Assembly (NCBI RefSeq): GCF_003334255.1
Contig: NZ_QOWU01000016.1
DNA length: 64,000 bases
From: Escherichia coli
GTDB lineage: Bacteria; Pseudomonadota; Gammaproteobacteria; Enterobacterales; Enterobacteriaceae
Direction: 5' to 3' (one strand)
Below are positions 6,102 to 41,432 of this stretch, piece after piece (position 1 is the stretch's first letter; each line of letters starts with the position of its first letter). Position numbers and translations under genes: made by a program. The notes under the pieces were generated by a model. The model ran no database searches. It saw only the letters and a program-made list of their open reading frames with translations, and had not been told where the DNA came from.

Positions 6102-7115
6102 ATGACGCAGGAAAACGAGATCAAACGTCCCATCCAGGATCTGGAGCACGAGCCGATTAAGCCGTTGGATAATAGCGAGAAAGGCAGCAAAGTTAGCCAG
6201 GCGCTGGAAACCGTCACCACCACTGCCGAAAAAGTCCAACGCCAACCGGTTATTGCGCACCTGATTCGCGCGACAGAACGCTTTAACGATCGGCTGGGTA
6301 ACCAGTTTGGTGCGGCTATCACCTATTTCTCATTTTTGTCGATGATACCAATTTTGATGGTGTCGTTTGCCGCAGGGGGCTTTGTGCTGGCCTCCCATCC
6401 GATGTTGCTACAGGATATCTTCGACAAAATTCTGCAAAACATCAGCGATCCGACGCTAGCCGCCACGTTGAAAAACACCATCAACACCGCCGTTCAGCAG
6501 CGTACGACTGTAGGGCTTGTCGGCCTGGCGGTGGCACTTTATTCCGGCATCAACTGGATGGGTAACCTGCGTGAAGCGATTCGTGCCCAGTCGCGCGATG
6601 TCTGGGAACGCTCGCCGCAAGATCAGGAGAAGTTCTGGGTAAAATATCTGCGAGATTTTATTTCGCTGATTGGTTTGTTGATTGCGCTGATTGTGACGCT
6701 TTCGATCACCTCGGTTGCCGGTTCGGCGCAGCAAATGATTATTAGCGCCCTGCACCTGAACAGCATTGAGTGGCTGAAACCGACGTGGCGATTGATTGGC
6801 CTGGCGATTTCCATCTTCGCCAACTATCTGCTTTTCTTCTGGATCTTCTGGCGGTTGCCGCGCCACCGTCCGCGCAAAAAAGCCCTGATTCGCGGAACAT
6901 TTCTGGCTGCTATTGGTTTTGAAGTGATTAAAATCGTGATGACCTACACCCTGCCATCGTTGATGAAATCCCCCTCTGGCGCAGCATTTGGTTCCGTGCT
7001 GGGGCTGATGGCATTTTTCTACTTCTTCGCCCGTTTGACGCTGTTTTGCGCGGCGTGGATTGCCACCGCCGAATATAAAGACGACCCGCGAATGCCGGGG
7101 AAAACGCAGCCTTAA
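6102..7115 (+). CDS. yhjD: inner membrane protein, YihY/virulence factor BrkB (RNase BN-like) family, 337 aa
   Basis: 337-aa polytopic membrane ORF recognised as YhjD. Confidence 0.88.
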   Translation: MTQENEIKRPIQDLEHEPIKPLDNSEKGSKVSQALETVTTTAEKVQRQPVIAHLIRATERFNDRLGNQFGAAITYFSFLSMIPILMVSFAAGGFVLASHPMLLQDIFDKILQNISDPTLAATLKNTINTAVQQRTTVGLVGLAVALYSGINWMGNLREAIRAQSRDVWERSPQDQEKFWVKYLRDFISLIGLLIALIVTLSITSVAGSAQQMIISALHLNSIEWLKPTWRLIGLAISIFANYLLFFWIFWRLPRHRPRKKALIRGTFLAAIGFEVIKIVMTYTLPSLMKSPSGAAFGSVLGLMAFFYFFARLTLFCAAWIATAEYKDDPRMPGKTQP

Positions 7116-7118
7116 AAT

Positions 7119-7215
7119 AGGCCGGATGCGGCGTAAACGCCTTATCCGGCATACGATTTTATTCGGCCTGGCTCCCCGTAGGCCGGATAAGATGCGCCAG
7201 CATCGCATCCGGCTA
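7119..7215. repeat. REP/BIME palindromic repeat cluster (yhjD-yhjE intergenic)
   Basis: Two inverted REP units: aggccggatgcggcgtaaacgccttatccggcatac and gtaggccggataagatgcgccagcatcgcatccggct. Confidence 0.8.
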
Positions 7216-7525
7216 TAATGCGCACATAACCTCTTGAAACTCGTCCCCAGAGCCTCTTCAGCCATCTATTTGGGAGCAAACAATTTCATTCCAACTCATA
7301 ACCCCAGCATATAAATCCAGTTGGTAACTTTTATTTAACCTGAAACCAGTTTTATCCACTATTTATAAAATTATGTGAAGCATTTCATAGAAGAAAAATC
7401 ACTGGCCTAAACATTATCCCCTTTTTGCCTGATTTTTGACCATTTCCGCGATTTGTTACACATTGAAATATCACTTTTGCTGTGCGTAATATGGCTATTC
7501 GTTAGCCAAAAAATAAGAAAAGATT

Positions 7526-8848
7526 ATGCAAGCAACAGCCACAACACTCGACCACGAGCAAGAATACACGCCGATCAACTCGCGTAATAAAGTCCTTGTC
7601 GCCTCTCTCATTGGCACAGCCATTGAGTTCTTCGACTTTTACATTTACGCCACTGCGGCCGTTATTGTGTTTCCGCATATCTTCTTCCCGCAGGGCGATC
7701 CTACGGCAGCAACGCTACAGTCGCTCGCCACCTTCGCCATCGCCTTCGTCGCGCGCCCCATTGGCTCTGCCGTTTTTGGTCATTTTGGCGATCGCGTTGG
7801 GCGTAAAGCGACGCTGGTCGCCTCGTTGCTAACGATGGGGATTTCGACCGTGGTGATTGGTCTGCTGCCGGGCTATGCCACGATTGGTATTTTCGCCCCG
7901 CTGCTGCTGGCGCTGGCTCGATTTGGTCAGGGTCTGGGCTTAGGCGGTGAATGGGGCGGCGCGGCGCTGCTGGCGACTGAAAACGCCCCACCGCGCAAAC
8001 GTGCACTGTATGGCTCCTTTCCGCAGCTGGGCGCACCGATTGGCTTCTTCTTTGCCAATGGCACTTTCTTGCTGCTTTCCTGGCTACTGACCGACGAGCA
8101 GTTTATGAGCTGGGGCTGGCGTGTGCCATTTATCTTCTCGGCGGTGCTGGTCATTATCGGCCTGTATGTTCGCGTGTCGCTGCATGAGTCGCCGGTGTTT
8201 GAGAAAGTCGCTAAAGCGAAAAAACAGGTGAAGATCCCGCTGGGTACGCTGCTGACCAAACATGTTCGCGTAACCGTACTGGGTACGTTCATTATGCTGG
8301 CAACCTATACGCTGTTTTACATCATGACGGTCTACTCTATGACCTTTAGTACCGCCGCCGCGCCAGTTGGGCTTGGCCTGCCGCGTAACGAAGTGTTGTG
8401 GATGTTGATGATGGCAGTTATTGGTTTTGGCGTGATGGTGCCAGTCGCTGGATTACTGGCTGATGCCTTTGGTCGCCGTAAAAGCATGGTAATCATCACC
8501 ACGCTGATCATCCTGTTCGCGCTGTTCGCCTTTAACCCACTGCTCGGTTCTGGCAACCCGATTCTGGTTTTTGCCTTCCTGCTGCTGGGGTTAAGTCTGA
8601 TGGGTCTGACCTTCGGGCCAATGGGTGCGCTGTTACCAGAGCTGTTTCCGACAGAAGTGCGTTACACCGGAGCATCGTTCTCTTACAACGTAGCGTCGAT
8701 TCTCGGGGCTTCCGTTGCGCCATATATCGCAGCCTGGTTGCAGACTAACTACGGGCTAGGTGCGGTGGGGTTATATCTGGCGGCGATGGCTGGCTTGACG
8801 TTAATCGCCCTGCTGCTGACCCATGAGACGCGACATCAGTCGTTGTAA
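7526..8848 (+). CDS. yhjE: MFS transporter, metabolite:H+ symporter family, 440 aa
   Basis: 440-aa 12-TM ORF; MFS signature GHFGDRVGRK; recognised as YhjE. Confidence 0.9.
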   Translation: MQATATTLDHEQEYTPINSRNKVLVASLIGTAIEFFDFYIYATAAVIVFPHIFFPQGDPTAATLQSLATFAIAFVARPIGSAVFGHFGDRVGRKATLVASLLTMGISTVVIGLLPGYATIGIFAPLLLALARFGQGLGLGGEWGGAALLATENAPPRKRALYGSFPQLGAPIGFFFANGTFLLLSWLLTDEQFMSWGWRVPFIFSAVLVIIGLYVRVSLHESPVFEKVAKAKKQVKIPLGTLLTKHVRVTVLGTFIMLATYTLFYIMTVYSMTFSTAAAPVGLGLPRNEVLWMLMMAVIGFGVMVPVAGLLADAFGRRKSMVIITTLIILFALFAFNPLLGSGNPILVFAFLLLGLSLMGLTFGPMGALLPELFPTEVRYTGASFSYNVASILGASVAPYIAAWLQTNYGLGAVGLYLAAMAGLTLIALLLTHETRHQSL

Positions 8849-8859
8849 TAAGAGTGAAA

Positions 8860-8958
8860 AGCCTGATGCGCTACGCTTATCAGGCCTGAATTTCCATACA
8901 ATATATTGAATTCGCAAGGATTTGTAGGCCGGATAAGGCGTTCACGCCGCATCCGGCA
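8860..8958. repeat. REP/BIME palindromic repeat cluster (yhjE-yhjG intergenic)
   Basis: gcctgatgcgctacgcttatcaggcc and gtaggccggataaggcgttcacgccgcatccggc; followed by hairpin gccggatgtcagacatccggc at 9001-9021. Confidence 0.8.
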
Positions 8959-9029
8959 TGAACAAAGCACACTTTGCCAACAATCTAAATCTGTTTAATT
9001 GCCGGATGTCAGACATCCGGCAATTATCA

Positions 9030-11090
9030 TCACTTCTTCATCTGCGACAAAATCGTCCGACACTGATTAGCCTCCCCTTCGGAAGGTGAGATCAGTGCCA
9101 GTAACGCCGCCGCCGGTGTTACCAGCGTTGCCAGTGCCGCAGCAACAGCACCACGGGCAATCAGCGGTCCGGCTTTCACCCCAGCCTGCGGATTTTTAAA
9201 CGTCCCCCGCACATACAGCGGCGAACGCAGTGTGATAATCCGAATTCCTTTACTCTCCGGATCAATAGTCAAATCCAGCTGTTCCGAAGCAAAACTTGCC
9301 GTGCCGGTAACATTAATCAACGCGTTCTCAGTATCGAAAGCAAAAATCTGCGGGCGCGCCACGCCGTTGGCAATATTCAGATTCGCCGCCGCGCAGTTCA
9401 CCCGCACCTCATCATCACCAAATATCGCACCGACAATGTAGTTGCCGACATTCAGCCCAACAATCTCCATCAGGTTGCGGCTCACCAGCCCGTCATTCAT
9501 CAACAGTTTCAGGTTGCCGTTACTGTTGCCTAAAAGTGCCGCCACCGAGTTACCGCTACCGCGTAGTTCCGCGTCACCGTTCATTTCCCCCAGCGTCTTC
9601 TGCATCAGTTCCACATCGGGCATCAGTTCTTTCAGTTTCAGTCGACGAGCCTGAATATCTGCCCGCCCCTGCATCGGCTTTTTATCGCCTTCCAGATGAA
9701 TATTCGCCGCAATGCTGCCGCCCGCCATGCCAAATTTCAGCGGTTGCAGGCGCAGGTCAGCATTTTTGAGGATGATATGAGTAGAAAGATCGCTAATCGG
9801 CAGGCTACTGCCATGCTCAATGCGCCGCCCTTTGAAGCGAACATCGGCATCCATAACGTCCCATTTATCGGTTTCGAAGCGGTCATAAGGCAGCACTTTG
9901 CCCGCAGGCTGAACGCTTTTTTCGCCCTTCTTCTGTTCAGACCGTTTCGACTTTTCTGCCCCTTTCCCGGAATCAACGCCAATCAACGGTCCCAGGTCCG
10001 CCAGCCGCAATTGCCGCGACTCGACATCACCTTCCAGTTTTGGTCGTGGCTTTCCGGTGGTGTAGACCAGAGAACCGTGGATATCGCTATCACCAATTCG
10101 CCCATTAAAACCGCGATAATCAAAGACCGACGATTTTTCAGTGTCGATTTTCGCTACCAGCCGACCATCCGTTTCAAACGGCGGGGTATCGGGCAGCAGA
10201 ACGCCCGTCAGTTCATAGAGATCACCCAGTGAATCGCCAGAAAATTTAAGCCGTAAATCGACACCGCCCATCTTCATTGGGTCATTCACGACGCCATCAA
10301 AAGCAACACGGGTGTTACCAGAGCGGAAATCAGCCTGTACCGGAAACGGCGTCCCTTCGCCACGCAGCGCCAGCATACCGCCTATTTTTCCCGTACCCGT
10401 GAGCGGTTCACCGTTATATCGTCCCTGCGCCTTCAGGCCAAAAACGTAATCGCCCACCTTTTCTTTATCCGCTTTACCTTTCGATCCAGTAACTTCGCTG
10501 AACGGCAGCGGCTTGCCTAAGGGATCAACAAAAATCTCCAGATCCGCTTTGCTTACTTTGTCATCAATGGCGATCCGCCCTTGATCGAAAAGAATATTAT
10601 CCAGCCGAAACGACCATGCCGACGGCTTTGCATTCGCGTCTTTGTTATCATCGTTGGCAAGATTAAACGTCCAGTTATTGTTCTTTTCAGAGAGGCGAAT
10701 CAGGCGCGCGTCGGGCTTTTCGAGCTTGATCCACGGCAGCCAGACCGTTTTGGTCAGCAGCGCCAGCGGGGCCAGCGTTGCCTCTACGCGTGGCAAATGC
10801 ACCATCGTGACTTCGGGAATATCCGGTGGATTGCCAAGAATGATGTCTTCCGCGTGTACATGGGGCCACGGCACCCAGCTGCGCCAGCCAGTTTCTTGTT
10901 TTTGCCGCTCCCACACCACGCCCAGATCGCCACGGATAGCGAACGGACGATTCAACTCCGCAGAGACTTTCTGGTTGATAGTCGGTTTGAGTCGATTCCA
11001 GTCAAAAGTTGCAATCAAAATGATCGCCACGACAATCAACAACAAGAAAGCCCCTGAAATCGCAGCGGTTATTTTGCCTGCCTTGCTCAT
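9030..11090 (-). CDS. yhjG: AsmA-family protein (envelope/lipid biogenesis), about 686 aa
   Basis: 691-aa ORF; N-terminal TM anchor then long periplasmic AsmA-like region; start placed at MSKAGK (11090), alternative in-frame ATG at 11105. Confidence 0.85.
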   Translation of the reverse strand: MSKAGKITAAISGAFLLLIVVAIILIATFDWNRLKPTINQKVSAELNRPFAIRGDLGVVWERQKQETGWRSWVPWPHVHAEDIILGNPPDIPEVTMVHLPRVEATLAPLALLTKTVWLPWIKLEKPDARLIRLSEKNNNWTFNLANDDNKDANAKPSAWSFRLDNILFDQGRIAIDDKVSKADLEIFVDPLGKPLPFSEVTGSKGKADKEKVGDYVFGLKAQGRYNGEPLTGTGKIGGMLALRGEGTPFPVQADFRSGNTRVAFDGVVNDPMKMGGVDLRLKFSGDSLGDLYELTGVLLPDTPPFETDGRLVAKIDTEKSSVFDYRGFNGRIGDSDIHGSLVYTTGKPRPKLEGDVESRQLRLADLGPLIGVDSGKGAEKSKRSEQKKGEKSVQPAGKVLPYDRFETDKWDVMDADVRFKGRRIEHGSSLPISDLSTHIILKNADLRLQPLKFGMAGGSIAANIHLEGDKKPMQGRADIQARRLKLKELMPDVELMQKTLGEMNGDAELRGSGNSVAALLGNSNGNLKLLMNDGLVSRNLMEIVGLNVGNYIVGAIFGDDEVRVNCAAANLNIANGVARPQIFAFDTENALINVTGTASFASEQLDLTIDPESKGIRIITLRSPLYVRGTFKNPQAGVKAGPLIARGAVAAALATLVTPAAALLALISPSEGEANQCRTILSQMKK

Positions 11091-13088: not shown

Positions 13089-13183
13089 ACGCAGCATATG
13101 CAAAAGGCTGGATAAAGTGTTACCCCTCTATCCAGCTCATCCATAAATACCTGATGGTTGTGCTAACTCATCACCATCAGGCA

Positions 13184-14680
13184 TTACTGTGCAGGTGGAA
13201 TATCCGTCACTTCAGGATGTACGTCATCCGTGGCGACAGAGGTGGTCGCAGCGGCGGTAGATGGGGCCATGATTTGATCCCAGACCGCCTGCAACGCTTT
13301 CATGTTAAATTCCGGCTCGCCTTTCGGCTGCAGCAGTATTAACGCCATATCATTCGACAACTGTTGACGCAGATCCTGATTTAACATCTCTACCGTCAGG
13401 CTATTAAGGAAATCCTGCCGCAGTTTCTGATATTGCTCCGGCGCGATATCGACAACCTGATTTTGCAACGAACGCATCCGCTGACCCATCAGAATATCGG
13501 TATCAGCTCGTGCATAGGCGGCAAACAGTTTCTGCAGCTCCAGTTTCTTTTGCGCCACTAACGCATTGAACTCTTCTTCCGGCAGACCTTTATCGCGAAC
13601 CTTCGCCAGTTCACGCGCCACCAGATTAAGGTTGCTGTTCAGCTTGTCGTTTGGTGATTCGATGTTGATGGCACACTGCGCACGCAGATACAGCACACGG
13701 CAGTCAAATCCAAGACCGATGTCTTTGCTGTTACTGGCACTTAACGCTTGCTGAACATGCCAGAACAGCGCCTCGCGGGCCAGGTCCGCACGCCAGTAGC
13801 GCAGCAGTGCGGCTGATTCACGAATCGGCTGCCACGGCGTATCCCACATGATAGATAACCGGTCCTGACGCACCGCGTCAGTCATAATACTCACCGCTTC
13901 CGCACGCAGCGGAGAAAGCGTCGGCACCGGAGCTGGCGTTTCACGTTTGCCTTTCAGTTCGCCAAACGTTTTGTTTATTTGGTCGACAACCGAGCGCGCA
14001 TCCACGTTTCCCACCACCAGTAGCGTCATTGCATCCGGGGTGTACCATTTCTGATAGAAATCTTTAATTTTTTCCGCTTCAACGGGTTGTTTCAGCGGAT
14101 CGGCAGGATCGTGACCTAACAAGGTTGACCCTTTCAGACGATAGCGCCACCAGCCCTCTTTAGTATCGGCAGGCCAGGTTGCCACCATGTCCTGACTTTG
14201 CAGCGCGTGGTTGATGGTTTCTGGTGTGATGGTCAATTTGCCAGTGGCATTTGCCAGATAAGAGAGCGCTTCTTTCAGCAAATCGTTACGGTTATTGGGC
14301 AAACTCAGATTAAACAGCGTGGTGTCATAAGAGACAATTACCGGCGGCATCGGGCGTTTAGGGTCGATCCCCTGCTGCCACAATGAACGCGCCTGTGCTG
14401 CGTCAAGGCCACCGCTTTGCGTTAGCGCAATACGAGGGATGGCGTGACTGTAACCGCTCTGTTGTGTACTTTCGGCGAGCGAACCGGTATTAACCAGCAG
14501 GCGAATTTCAACACGATCGCTGGGACGCTGGGGGGTGGTCAGCACTTGCCACTGTAAACCGTTGGAAAGCGTCCCCTGTTGCCATGCTGGATCAGGCTGG
14601 AGCGCATCTGCCTGCACATAGCCAGCAGTGGCCATCATCAGCAAACCGCCCGCTAAAAGTCGAATTTTTGTGCCCTGCAT
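13184..14680 (-). CDS. yhjJ: peptidase M16-family homologue, periplasmic (498 aa), catalytic HxxEH apparently absent
   Basis: 498-aa ORF with signal peptide; recognised as YhjJ; region where M16 enzymes carry HxxEH reads GYSHAIPR. Confidence 0.85.
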   Translation of the reverse strand: MQGTKIRLLAGGLLMMATAGYVQADALQPDPAWQQGTLSNGLQWQVLTTPQRPSDRVEIRLLVNTGSLAESTQQSGYSHAIPRIALTQSGGLDAAQARSLWQQGIDPKRPMPPVIVSYDTTLFNLSLPNNRNDLLKEALSYLANATGKLTITPETINHALQSQDMVATWPADTKEGWWRYRLKGSTLLGHDPADPLKQPVEAEKIKDFYQKWYTPDAMTLLVVGNVDARSVVDQINKTFGELKGKRETPAPVPTLSPLRAEAVSIMTDAVRQDRLSIMWDTPWQPIRESAALLRYWRADLAREALFWHVQQALSASNSKDIGLGFDCRVLYLRAQCAINIESPNDKLNSNLNLVARELAKVRDKGLPEEEFNALVAQKKLELQKLFAAYARADTDILMGQRMRSLQNQVVDIAPEQYQKLRQDFLNSLTVEMLNQDLRQQLSNDMALILLQPKGEPEFNMKALQAVWDQIMAPSTAAATTSVATDDVHPEVTDIPPAQ

Positions 14681-14860
14681 GTGAACCCCTGATCAACTAT
14701 CCTGGTAATAAAAAAACTGCCCGTTGTCGGTCAGTCTAAATGACGTTAAAAACACTTCGTGTTAGACCGCAAGAACATGAAAATGTCACGGAAGAAGTGA
14801 AATAAACCTGAACTCACCCAGGTGGTAAGTTCAGGCACAGGGGTCAATTATGCGCAAACA

Positions 14861-41097: not shown

Positions 41098-41152
41098 GTC
41101 GAGTCGAACCTCCCTGCCCCCGGAGGTTCTCATCCTCATGAGCTGCAGATGC

Positions 41153-41182
41153 AAAAAAGCCTGCTCGTTGAGCAGGCTTTTC
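41153..41182 (-). terminator. duplicate copy of the proK intrinsic terminator
   Basis: Hairpin agcctgctc-gttg-agcaggct flanked by an A6 run (T6 on the minus strand). Confidence 0.55.
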
Positions 41183-41320
41183 GAATTTGGTCGGTGATAG
41201 AGGATTACTCGCCACTTCGTGGCTCGCCCTGCGGGCCGTTGCTGGCGCAACGTTCTCTCGCTTCGCTCGAGTCGAACCTCCCTGCCCCCGGAGGTTCTCA
41301 TCCTCATGAGCTGCAGATGC

Positions 41321-41350
41321 AAAAAAGCCTGCTCGTTGAGCAGGCTTTTC
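41321..41350 (-). terminator. proK rho-independent terminator
   Basis: Same hairpin immediately 3' of the tRNA on the minus strand, followed by a T-run. Confidence 0.7.
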
Positions 41351-41355
41351 GAATT

Positions 41356-41432
<77 letters not shown>

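Follow-up and report, generated by a model that had tools for sequence, protein, structure and literature searches.

In thousands of genomes RefSeq still gives the gene yhjJ the label 'M16 family metallopeptidase', which raises the question of whether its product, YhjJ, is a peptidase at all and, if it is not, what it does in the cell. The gene occupies positions 13184-14680 on the minus strand of the window, by which we mean the whole 64,000-nucleotide stretch of Escherichia coli DNA that was analysed. An earlier note, drawn up from the DNA letters alone, had described YhjJ as a secreted M16 homologue without its zinc-binding motif, and had proposed a non-proteolytic role, possibly as a chaperone or binding protein.

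The yhjJ locus and its promoter

The window gene is yhjJ, now named bipP. Positions 13184-14680 have 0 mismatches (100% DNA identity) to yhjJ of K-12 strain ER1709, and the encoded protein carries the accession WP_001163141.1. The gene is a monocistronic unit with a hairpin on either side and a conserved Shine-Dalgarno sequence, AGGGG; the features of the locus are as follows.

13184..14680, (-) strand: yhjJ / bipP coding sequence, ATG start, 498 codons and TAA stop, from the ORF listing
14806..14836, (-) strand: terminator-like hairpin 3' of dctA, a 13-bp stem followed by a T-rich tail
13107..13136, (-) strand: terminator-like hairpin 3' of yhjJ, an 11-bp stem followed by a T-rich tail
14762..14789, (-) strand: candidate sigma-E-type promoter, GTGACAT, 16 nt, then TCTAA, identified as a conserved footprint

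The neighbours of yhjJ are dctA (upstream) and kdgK, in an order kept in Salmonella and Yersinia; the divergent family members P0123 and P0132 lie in non-syntenic contexts. The hairpin at 14806..14836 sets yhjJ apart from dctA. That at 13107..13136 overlaps a sub-threshold REP/naRNA4-like match, beyond which an Rfam scan of the locus returned nothing.

Both boxes of the candidate promoter and their spacing are invariant across E. coli, Salmonella and Yersinia, within flanks that diverge, and a sigma-70 promoter scan yielded no site. Sigma-E has been reported to raise yhjJ expression 8-fold in E. coli (PMC2731931), and Salmonella yhjJ coincides with a high-affinity sigma-E ChIP peak (PMC4577112); this reported control fits the conserved footprint. 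We infer that a sigma-E promoter drives yhjJ and thereby makes it part of the envelope-stress response.

Of the 5426 complete E. coli genomes, 5423 carry an intact yhjJ, and its dN/dS against Salmonella was 0.059, which indicates strong purifying selection. Together with the synteny in Salmonella and Yersinia, these values show that yhjJ is functional and not decaying.

An M16 fold without its catalytic residues

That YhjJ is an M16 homologue, as the earlier note had it, with the two-domain fold of that family, was found alike by Pfam, by profile-profile alignment with active relatives in hhalign (probability 100, E 1e-57) and by Foldseek. The parts of the protein are listed below.

14609..14680, (-) strand: Sec-type signal peptide, residues 1-24, MQGTKIRLLAGGLLMMATAGYVQA followed by D25, recognized by eye and hydropathy
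14207..14545, (-) strand: degenerate Peptidase_M16 domain (PF00675), residues 46-158, Pfam i-Evalue 1.1e-5
13550..14083, (-) strand: Peptidase_M16_C domain (PF05193), residues 200-377, Pfam i-Evalue 5.6e-24
13673..13702, (-) strand: cysteine pair C327-RVLYLRAQ-C336, both cysteines present in 171/171 family members
13187..13258, (-) strand: disordered low-complexity C-terminal tail, residues 475-498, pLDDT <50

The PF00675 match covers just model positions 2-107 of 149. A search of NCBIfam found no dedicated BipP model; its YfmF and YfmH models scored 26 and 23 bits, respectively, far below their cut-offs of 285 and 250. When the AF2 model of YhjJ (pLDDT 88) was submitted to Foldseek, the top match was 3GO9, followed by PqqL and FusC, with a TM of 0.75 to the first half of PqqL.

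The closed chamber of M16 peptidases has four domains and is formed either by one chain of ~930-1000 aa or by a dimer of two ~50-kDa subunits. YhjJ has only two domains within its 498 aa, matching those of the N-terminal half in PqqL/FusC-type proteins. The size had been read as that of a pitrilysin-like M16 protein; the M16 part of that description stands, although 498 aa is half of the full pitrilysin size. A basic n-region (K5, R7), a hydrophobic core (L8-A19) and a VQA cleavage motif before D25 are consistent with the secretion signal described earlier; the AF2 model shows disorder over residues 1-23, and the protein is reported to be periplasmic (PMC11789061). The C-terminal tail is poorly conserved and lies outside the region aligned to a longer M16 protein from Plesiomonas, which is described below. 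In the model, Cys327 and Cys336 face each other on the adjacent hairpin strands 322-330 and 333-341 and would probably form a stabilising periplasmic disulfide. This pair is missing from 4/5 of the active sequences compared and is common only to the Plesiomonas form.

The site at which catalysis would be expected was examined in three independent alignments: phmmer against the PqqL and FusC structures, MAFFT with 13 active relatives, and hhalign. Two elements are relevant.

14432..14455, (-) strand: GYSHAIPR, residues 76-83, in the place of HxxEH, located by the alignments and lying on helix 77-87 of the model
14177..14224, (-) strand: E-x6-E remnant, residues 153-168, PETINHALQSQDMVAT, located by MAFFT and hhalign

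In all three alignments H79-A-I-P82-R83 fell precisely where active M16 enzymes have their H-x-x-E-H, in hhalign with the probability and E-value given above, so that P82 occupies the position of the catalytic glutamate and R83 that of the second zinc histidine. Neither HxxEH nor HExxH was found in the protein, nor when all six reading frames of the region were translated, and the protein contains only five histidines (79, 158, 190, 308 and 488). The missing motif and its GYSHAIPR replacement, both noticed earlier, were thus confirmed.

The third M16 zinc ligand is the second glutamate of a downstream E-x6-E, whose equivalents in insulin-degrading enzyme are E182 and E189; this ligand is invariant in 15 active sequences (E163 of A3). 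The remnant in YhjJ is 4 residues shorter than in active enzymes. Its first glutamate is replaced by A159 in MAFFT and hhalign alike, and the ligand glutamate is matched by S162 in MAFFT and by a gap in hhalign; in pairwise phmmer the glutamate pair falls on Q161/T168. The aligners disagree on the counterpart of the ligand because of the four-residue deletion, and none of the three placed a glutamate or aspartate there. Every catalytic residue of YhjJ is therefore lost.

Other placements of the ligands were also considered. SYDTT (118-122), set against SYDET of PqqL, was rejected as the lost third ligand, since the ligand sits in the downstream E-x6-E, as the alignments confirmed; residues 112-128 instead form the NAxT..T.Y structural motif, partly lost in BipP. 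A shifted metal site made of H79, E154 and H158 (helix 153-161) was rejected because relatives have K, R, S or Q in place of H158, and because active enzymes too can have an acidic residue at 154 that does not serve them as a ligand. No conserved replacement set of His, Glu or Asp was found in the family alignment, in which H158 and E154 vary; the search for zinc ligands at a shifted position, the finding that would have overturned the earlier reading, thus returned none.

HxxEH was present in 0/223 full-length family members (Enterobacterales) and in 72/72 outgroup M16 homologues, the outgroup being M16 homologues of >400 aa; this difference exceeds a chance absence of the motif. The catalytic loss is family-wide and old. 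At the motif site H79 is kept in 152/171 members (and substituted in 19/171), P82 in 146/171 and R83 in 158/171, with entropies of 0.5-0.9 against 1.09 for the median position. Because these three residues are better conserved than the median, the old active site may keep some role. On the evidence of sequence, YhjJ is very probably a pseudo-peptidase, which would neither bind zinc nor cleave peptides.

NlpI contacts and competing accounts of function

A role for YhjJ has been described by Park et al. (PNAS 2025), who renamed it BipP and noted the missing motif (PMC11789061). In that work, BipP binds the adaptor NlpI and competitively blocks the recruitment of substrates to the Prc protease; overexpression of bipP stabilised MepS, MepH and MltD, and the hyperactive substitutions N130K, N225K and Q284R slowed NlpI-dependent but not NlpI-independent degradation (PMC11789061). 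BipP pull-downs recovered NlpI alone, neither Prc nor the hydrolases; substrates and BipP competed for NlpI, interface mutants abolished function, and a ternary complex of BipP-NlpI with Prc was reported (PMC11789061). [quoted passage not shown] In vitro, purified wild-type BipP gave no binding or inhibition, which were obtained with the triple hyperactive mutant only, and the published structure of the complex was obtained by fitting an AlphaFold model into a cryo-EM map of low resolution (PMC11789061). All residues cited there match the window protein (D30, A32, Q34, L47, N130, N225, Q284, Y389, A390, P414, E415). The published NlpI pocket lies in two parts.

14579..14593, (-) strand: D30-P-A32-W-Q34, N-terminal part of the pocket (PMC11789061)
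13436..13516, (-) strand: Y389-A390 to P414-E415, C-terminal part of the pocket (PMC11789061)

All eight contact residues (D30, A32, Q34, L47, Y389, A390, P414, E415) are present, each being kept in 167-171 of 171 family members: D30 in 170, A32 in 168 and Q34 in 169 at the N-terminal part, and Y389 in 170, A390 in 167, P414 in 168 and E415 in 171 at the C-terminal part. The contacts remain at least 98% conserved even at 33% overall identity and are among the top 9% of conserved positions; the Y389/A390/P414/E415 pocket was not found in PqqL-like outgroups and is present in the Plesiomonas form. This family-wide conservation offers independent support for the published interface model.

The account that we favour, and regard as very likely, is that BipP is an inactive M16-fold protein that restrains NlpI-Prc. 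It would be exported to the periplasm and act as a stoichiometric regulator. [quoted passage not shown] Since the hydrolases would be excluded from NlpI, their degradation by Prc would slow, and their levels would rise when DD-endopeptidase activity is limiting. The non-proteolytic binding role proposed in the earlier note matches the published BipP-NlpI experiments (PMC11789061); of its two suggestions, a binding protein or regulator holds and a chaperone does not.

Two other accounts would keep YhjJ within peptidase chemistry. It might be a working metallopeptidase with unconventional ligands, for example one that cleaves host autophagy proteins at nardilysin-type dibasic sites, as could be gathered from its RefSeq name, from the retention of H79 in most of the family, and from a Salmonella study in which YhjJ was taken as a zinc protease from its Pfam domain and delta-yhjJ strains had autophagy phenotypes (Sudhakar et al. 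2019). Cleavage was never demonstrated in that paper, however, and the Salmonella motif is GFSHAIPR; HxxEH, the catalytic glutamate, the second histidine and the third-ligand glutamate are absent in every alignment, no alternative set of His, Glu or Asp is conserved (H158 varies), and bipP dosage leaves NlpI and Prc levels unchanged (PMC11789061). This account is close to refuted. YhjJ might otherwise be the inactive subunit in an M16B peptidase heterodimer, of the alpha-MPP, bc1 core or PA0372 type, completing the chamber of an active partner: its size (~50 kDa, two domains) and fold would fit, inactive M16B partners are known, and Foldseek matches M16B subunits and core proteins with a TM of ~0.6. 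Yet there is no adjacent M16 gene, as dctA and kdgK flank yhjJ in three genera with hairpins on both sides, and its closest relatives are the N-terminal halves of four-domain enzymes, the tree nesting YhjJ with PqqL-like proteins. Besides BipP, the BipP study names just PqqL and PtrA as M16 proteins of E. coli, both of them four-domain monomers, and its pull-downs retrieve NlpI (PMC11789061). We give such a partnership hardly any credence.

The chaperone half of the earlier suggestion would make YhjJ a general periplasmic chaperone or peptide binder, whose vestigial M16 cleft holds unfolded envelope proteins. M16 folds bind extended peptides, which counts in its favour, as does membership of the sigma-E regulon (PMC4577112, PMC2731931), but there is no sign of client binding and a two-domain half-chamber cannot enclose a substrate. 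Both genetics and biochemistry point to one partner, NlpI, whose contact residues form the family's best-conserved surface, and a chaperone role is accordingly very unlikely. In pathogens, YhjJ might also, or instead, act outside the bacterium, which it could leave in vesicles, for instance, and modulate autophagy by binding host LC3B without cleaving it. His-tagged YhjJ was enriched in a GST-LC3B pull-down in the Salmonella study, and LC3B colocalisation was reduced in delta-sifA delta-yhjJ Salmonella; the pull-down, however, used cytoplasmically expressed protein, and the infection phenotypes could be secondary to changed levels of cell-wall hydrolases. Moreover, yhjJ, whose product is exported by the Sec route, is a core gene both in E. 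coli of commensal or laboratory origin and in plant-associated and insect-associated Enterobacterales such as Pantoea, Dickeya and Xenorhabdus; this distribution argues for a housekeeping envelope role. A host-directed function is thus improbable. The Salmonella infection phenotypes and LC3B binding are unexplained by the NlpI model.

Origin, significance and known systems

A possible view of an ancestor is offered by a 943-aa M16 protein of P. shigelloides (WP_435132562.1; P0131/P0274), which is 36% identical over BipP residues 1-467 and which branches in the tree as sister to the BipP clade in its entirety (200/200 bootstraps). This long form has 7/8 of the NlpI-contact residues and the cysteine pair in common with BipP; unlike BipP, it retains HFLEH, ERGVILGE and NAST, together with the full second half of the M16 architecture, and its genomic context differs from that of bipP. 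The main text of Park et al. mentions neither Plesiomonas nor the cysteine pair (PMC11789061). Because the sister form keeps HFLEH, the comparison suggests that BipP descends from an active peptidase of four domains that was truncated and inactivated. A further step, that this active peptidase was already docked on NlpI and that Plesiomonas retains the ancestor, is conceivable but rather doubtful. If it is true, NlpI of Plesiomonas and of the ancestor would recruit another protease besides Prc, one belonging to a different class, and BipP would have become a brake when that protease was killed and its docking site kept. The active-looking long form provides a handle on the evolution of the regulator, and perhaps on what the activating signal binds to.

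The finding of a dead peptidase is correct and already known (Park et al., PNAS 2025); since the biology was published in 2025, there is nothing new in it for a specialist. The additions made here are modest: the conservation of the contact residues, the cysteine pair, the promoter footprint and the Plesiomonas sister form. BipP is a clear case of a dead enzyme that has found new use as a regulator, and it belongs to a circuit by which E. coli and its relatives keep their cell-wall-cleaving enzymes at a safe level, a circuit that is a possible antibiotic target. The metallopeptidase label matters as well, in that at least one infection-biology paper built on it a hypothesis of host-protein cleavage that the sequence cannot support.

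Among known systems, BipP of E. coli K-12 is the same protein (100% identity), with nothing different (PMC11789061). The crystal structure 3GO9 from Yersinia pestis (2009) is that of a YhjJ orthologue (phmmer E 5e-199, 61% identity; Foldseek TM 0.89/0.96 and rmsd 1.9 A against the YhjJ model) with a likewise degenerate motif, GFAHLLPR; it is a structural-genomics deposit named 'predicted insulinase family protease', with no functional study. The closest characterised active relatives are the four-domain periplasmic proteins PqqL (E. coli) and FusC (Pectobacterium), whose N-terminal half aligns with the whole of YhjJ and which have the N-terminal DP-x-W motif in common with it. At ~930 aa, in contrast to YhjJ, they have HxxEH, E-x6-E, NAxT and a chamber-closing second half, and they are without its cysteine pair and its Y389/A390/P414/E415 pocket.

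In function, the nearest parallels come from other folds. EnvC, NlpD and ActS, degenerate LytM (M23) factors to which the authors of the BipP study themselves liken it (PMC11789061), are also periplasmic metallopeptidase homologues, have lost their metal ligands and regulate cell-wall hydrolysis by binding proteins; their M23 fold, however, is unrelated to M16, and they activate amidases directly, whereas BipP inhibits a protease adaptor. YejM (PbgA), the antagonist of LapB-FtsH/LpxC, resembles BipP as a non-proteolytic, homeostatic brake on an envelope-protease adaptor, but is an unrelated inner-membrane protein that blocks adaptor-protease contact instead of substrate recognition and is 'on' by default (PMC11789061).

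The catalytic site and fold of YhjJ

The protein under study and its altered motif are placed as follows:

13184-14680, minus strand: yhjJ (bipP), an ORF of 498 codons with an ATG start
YhjJ residues 76-83, minus strand: GYSHAIPR, located where HxxEH is expected

The earlier note had reported that GYSHAIPR replaces the zinc-binding HxxEH motif, and an ORF scan and three independent alignments bore this out. Neither HxxEH nor HExxH occurs in the protein, which contains five histidines in total, or in any frame of the region. YhjJ was aligned by phmmer with the sequences of the PqqL and FusC crystal structures (GVAHFVEHMMF, GVAHMVEHMVF), by MAFFT with 13 active relatives and, through a profile of 30 family members, with a profile of 15 active enzymes (probability 100, E 1e-57); each time, H79-A-I-P82-R83 fell on the H-x-x-E-H of active M16 enzymes. 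The first zinc histidine is therefore retained, with proline in place of the catalytic glutamate and arginine in place of the second zinc histidine.

As their third zinc ligand, M16 enzymes use the second glutamate of E-x6-E, a segment approximately 75 residues downstream of HxxEH (the glutamates are E182/E189 in insulin-degrading enzyme and E169 in pitrilysin). This ligand was invariant across 15/15 active sequences. The corresponding segment of YhjJ is shorter by four residues; A159 is the counterpart of the first glutamate, and S162 or a gap that of the ligand. Because P82, R83, A159 and S162 (or the gap) replace them, every catalytic position except the first histidine is lost. No conserved substitute metal ligand was present at a shifted position in the alignments or family counts, so the earlier note's reading is not undone by displaced zinc ligands.

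Both Pfam profiles matched, Peptidase_M16 weakly and in part (residues 46-158, E 1e-5, model positions 2-107 of 149) and M16_C solidly (residues 200-377, E 6e-24). AlphaFold2, given the family alignment, yielded a confident model (pLDDT 88, pTM 0.84) in which only residues 1-23 (signal peptide) and 475-498 (C-terminal tail) are disordered. In a Foldseek search of the PDB, the Yersinia pestis orthologue 3GO9 came top (TM 0.89/0.96, rmsd 1.9 A, 61% identity). Next in rank were PqqL, matched over its first half, a Porphyromonas M16 protein and FusC; M16B subunits, mitochondrial processing peptidase and bc1 core proteins followed. Because of the matches to 3GO9, the first half of PqqL and FusC, the predicted structure is a genuine M16 fold that corresponds to the two N-terminal domains of a four-domain enzyme. 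The proposed M16 homology thus holds, but not the pitrilysin-like size, as YhjJ matches only half of such an enzyme.

Restraint of NlpI-Prc and competing explanations

Both the missing motif and the non-proteolytic reading have already been published, with experiments, for this exact protein, which Park et al. (PNAS 2025, PMC11789061) renamed BipP. Those authors stated the lack of HxxEH from an alignment with PqqL and PtrA, and argued for a regulator role by analogy with degenerate LytM factors. Deletion of bipP aggravated DD-endopeptidase mutants, and levels of NlpI and Prc were unaffected by BipP; in vitro, hyperactive BipP (N130K, N225K, Q284R) slowed NlpI-dependent but not NlpI-independent degradation, wild-type BipP was inactive, and peptidoglycan fragments failed as the activating signal (PMC11789061). 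BipP retrieved NlpI in pull-downs, and Prc through NlpI only; BipP and substrates compete for NlpI. Their AlphaFold interface, validated by charge-reversal and bulky mutants and consistent with a low-resolution cryo-EM map, inserts NlpI R28 into a BipP pocket of D30, A32, L47, Y389, A390, P414 and E415, with Q34 as a further contact (PMC11789061).

Set against this mechanism, none of three other explanations is a serious competitor. A cryptically active peptidase is extremely improbable, as all ligands are lost and H79 itself varies across the family. It is just as hard to credit that YhjJ is a non-catalytic M16B partner subunit; no partner gene lies next to yhjJ, and the phylogeny groups YhjJ with four-domain enzymes. 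A general chaperone is barely easier to entertain, with nothing supporting it and a specific partner known; of the chaperone or binding role suggested in the earlier note, the binding part is upheld by the published NlpI interaction (PMC11789061) and the chaperone part is not supported.

The restraint of NlpI-Prc is not reflected in database names. Across complete E. coli genomes YhjJ is annotated 'M16 family metallopeptidase', and RefSeq/PGAP and UniRef also use 'insulinase family protein', 'zinc protease' and 'pitrilysin family protein'; NCBIfam has no model for it. Judged from its sequence, YhjJ cannot have the activity these names imply. Sudhakar et al. (Autophagy 2019) called Salmonella YhjJ a zinc protease and predicted autophagy-protein cleavage at nardilysin-type sites from the Pfam domain alone. 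Because Salmonella YhjJ reads GFSHAIPR and has all the losses in common with the E. coli protein, the proteolytic part of that proposal, as far as the alignments go, cannot stand; the LC3B pull-down and infection phenotypes of the same study may stem from a second, moonlighting interaction or, indirectly, from effects on the cell wall. The remaining value of our analysis is a flag on the misleading 'metallopeptidase' annotation and a small evolutionary lead from Plesiomonas.

The yhjJ locus and a candidate sigma-E promoter

The window's yhjJ is 100% identical to that of K-12 strain ER1709, with zero mismatches gene-wide. Of 5426 complete E. coli genomes, 5423 carry the gene, in every case on the chromosome. 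dctA lies upstream on the same strand and kdgK is convergent, with pdeH and yhjG to one side and pdeK/hmsP and the bcs cellulose operon to the other; because terminator-like hairpins occupy both flanks, yhjJ looks monocistronic. Its dN/dS is 0.059 between E. coli and Salmonella, synteny is retained in Salmonella and Yersinia enterocolitica, and the gene is not decaying.

Upstream of the gene lies a conserved site:

14789-14762, minus strand: GTGACAT-N16-TCTAA, invariant in E. coli, Salmonella and Yersinia

The surrounding sequence diverges among the three, and no sigma-70-like site was found upstream of yhjJ. Sigma-E is reported to induce yhjJ 8-fold in E. coli (PMC2731931), and a high-affinity sigma-E ChIP peak is located at yhjJ in Salmonella (PMC4577112). 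We infer a candidate sigma-E promoter, which would link the envelope-stress response to this brake on the breakdown of cell-wall hydrolases.

Several other observations were made. In the Y. enterocolitica locus (L007, CP124245.1), an IS110-family transposase gene (6600-7562) separates yhjJ and kdgK, the dctA-yhjJ-kdgK-pdeH-yhjG order being otherwise kept. The kdgK-yhjJ intergenic region (window 13106-13182) gave a sub-threshold match to Rfam naRNA4, a REP-derived family (23.5 bits; gathering score 59.5); the match overlaps the hairpin that follows yhjJ and is probably no more than a REP element. In bcsQ (27973-28725, minus strand), codon 6 at 28709 is TTG (Leu), giving an intact 250-aa BcsQ, whereas K-12 ER1709 has TAG and a shortened annotated gene. 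Because identity to K-12 is otherwise 99.96% over 41 kb, the window derives from a K-12-like, or repaired, strain with a potentially functional cellulose operon. Beside tRNA-Pro(CGG) (41356-41432), positions 41099-41374 hold 168 bp missing from ER1709. Of these, 60 bp are novel (41207-41266) and the other 108 bp duplicate positions 41099-41206, a unit that takes in the last 19 nt of the tRNA at its 3' end. Such a direct repeat looks like a scar of integration or excision; it was absent from the Tandem Repeats Finder output.

Conservation and origin of the BipP family

An exhaustive search over 1.84 billion cluster representatives ended in a sharp score cliff, with about ten full-length BipP-like clusters at 257-1086 bits and, below it, PqqL-like proteins of about 930 aa at no more than 120 bits. 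HxxEH occurred in 0 of 223 full-length family members and in 72 of 72 outgroup proteins longer than 400 aa. Named members belong to the Enterobacteriaceae, Erwiniaceae, Yersiniaceae, Hafniaceae, Pectobacteriaceae, Morganellaceae and Budviciaceae, and none lies outside Enterobacterales, consistent with the statement that Pseudomonas aeruginosa is without a close homologue.

Among 171 non-redundant members, with overall identity as low as 33%, each of the eight NlpI-contact residues was kept in 167-171, and they rank within the most conserved 9% of positions; comparison across the family thus independently supports the modelled interface. The family also shares an invariant pair of cysteines, C327 and C336, missing from PqqL-like active outgroups; they are opposed across a beta-hairpin in the AlphaFold2 model, and a periplasmic disulfide, of which the main text of Park et al. 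(PMC11789061) makes no mention, is the natural reading of the pair. N225K (codon at window 14006-14008) and Q284K (13829-13831) each occur naturally in 3 of 171 members, divergent ones, and Q284R itself in none of 171; because these substitutions resemble the lab-selected hyperactive type, some lineages may carry a constitutively stronger brake.

The closest relative beyond the short family, with 36% identity over BipP residues 1-467, comes from the Plesiomonas shigelloides locus L002:

L002 (CP195150.1) 8001-10832: a 943-aa M16 protein, sister to the BipP clade

In a neighbour-joining tree the short forms were monophyletic (200/200 bootstraps), with the Plesiomonas protein as their sister on a short branch (200/200). 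Unlike yhjJ, its gene is not flanked by dctA and kdgK; an OmpA-like gene lies upstream, and a 4HBT thioesterase, pldA and recQ downstream. Unlike BipP, the protein retains HFLEH, ERGVILGE and NAST together with the whole of a second M16 half; like BipP, it has 7 of 8 NlpI-contact residues and the cysteine pair, which it alone has among the active sequences compared. The simplest reading is that BipP would have arisen once, after the Plesiomonas split, from an active enzyme that lost its C-terminal half and catalytic residues and that, more speculatively, may already have bound NlpI.
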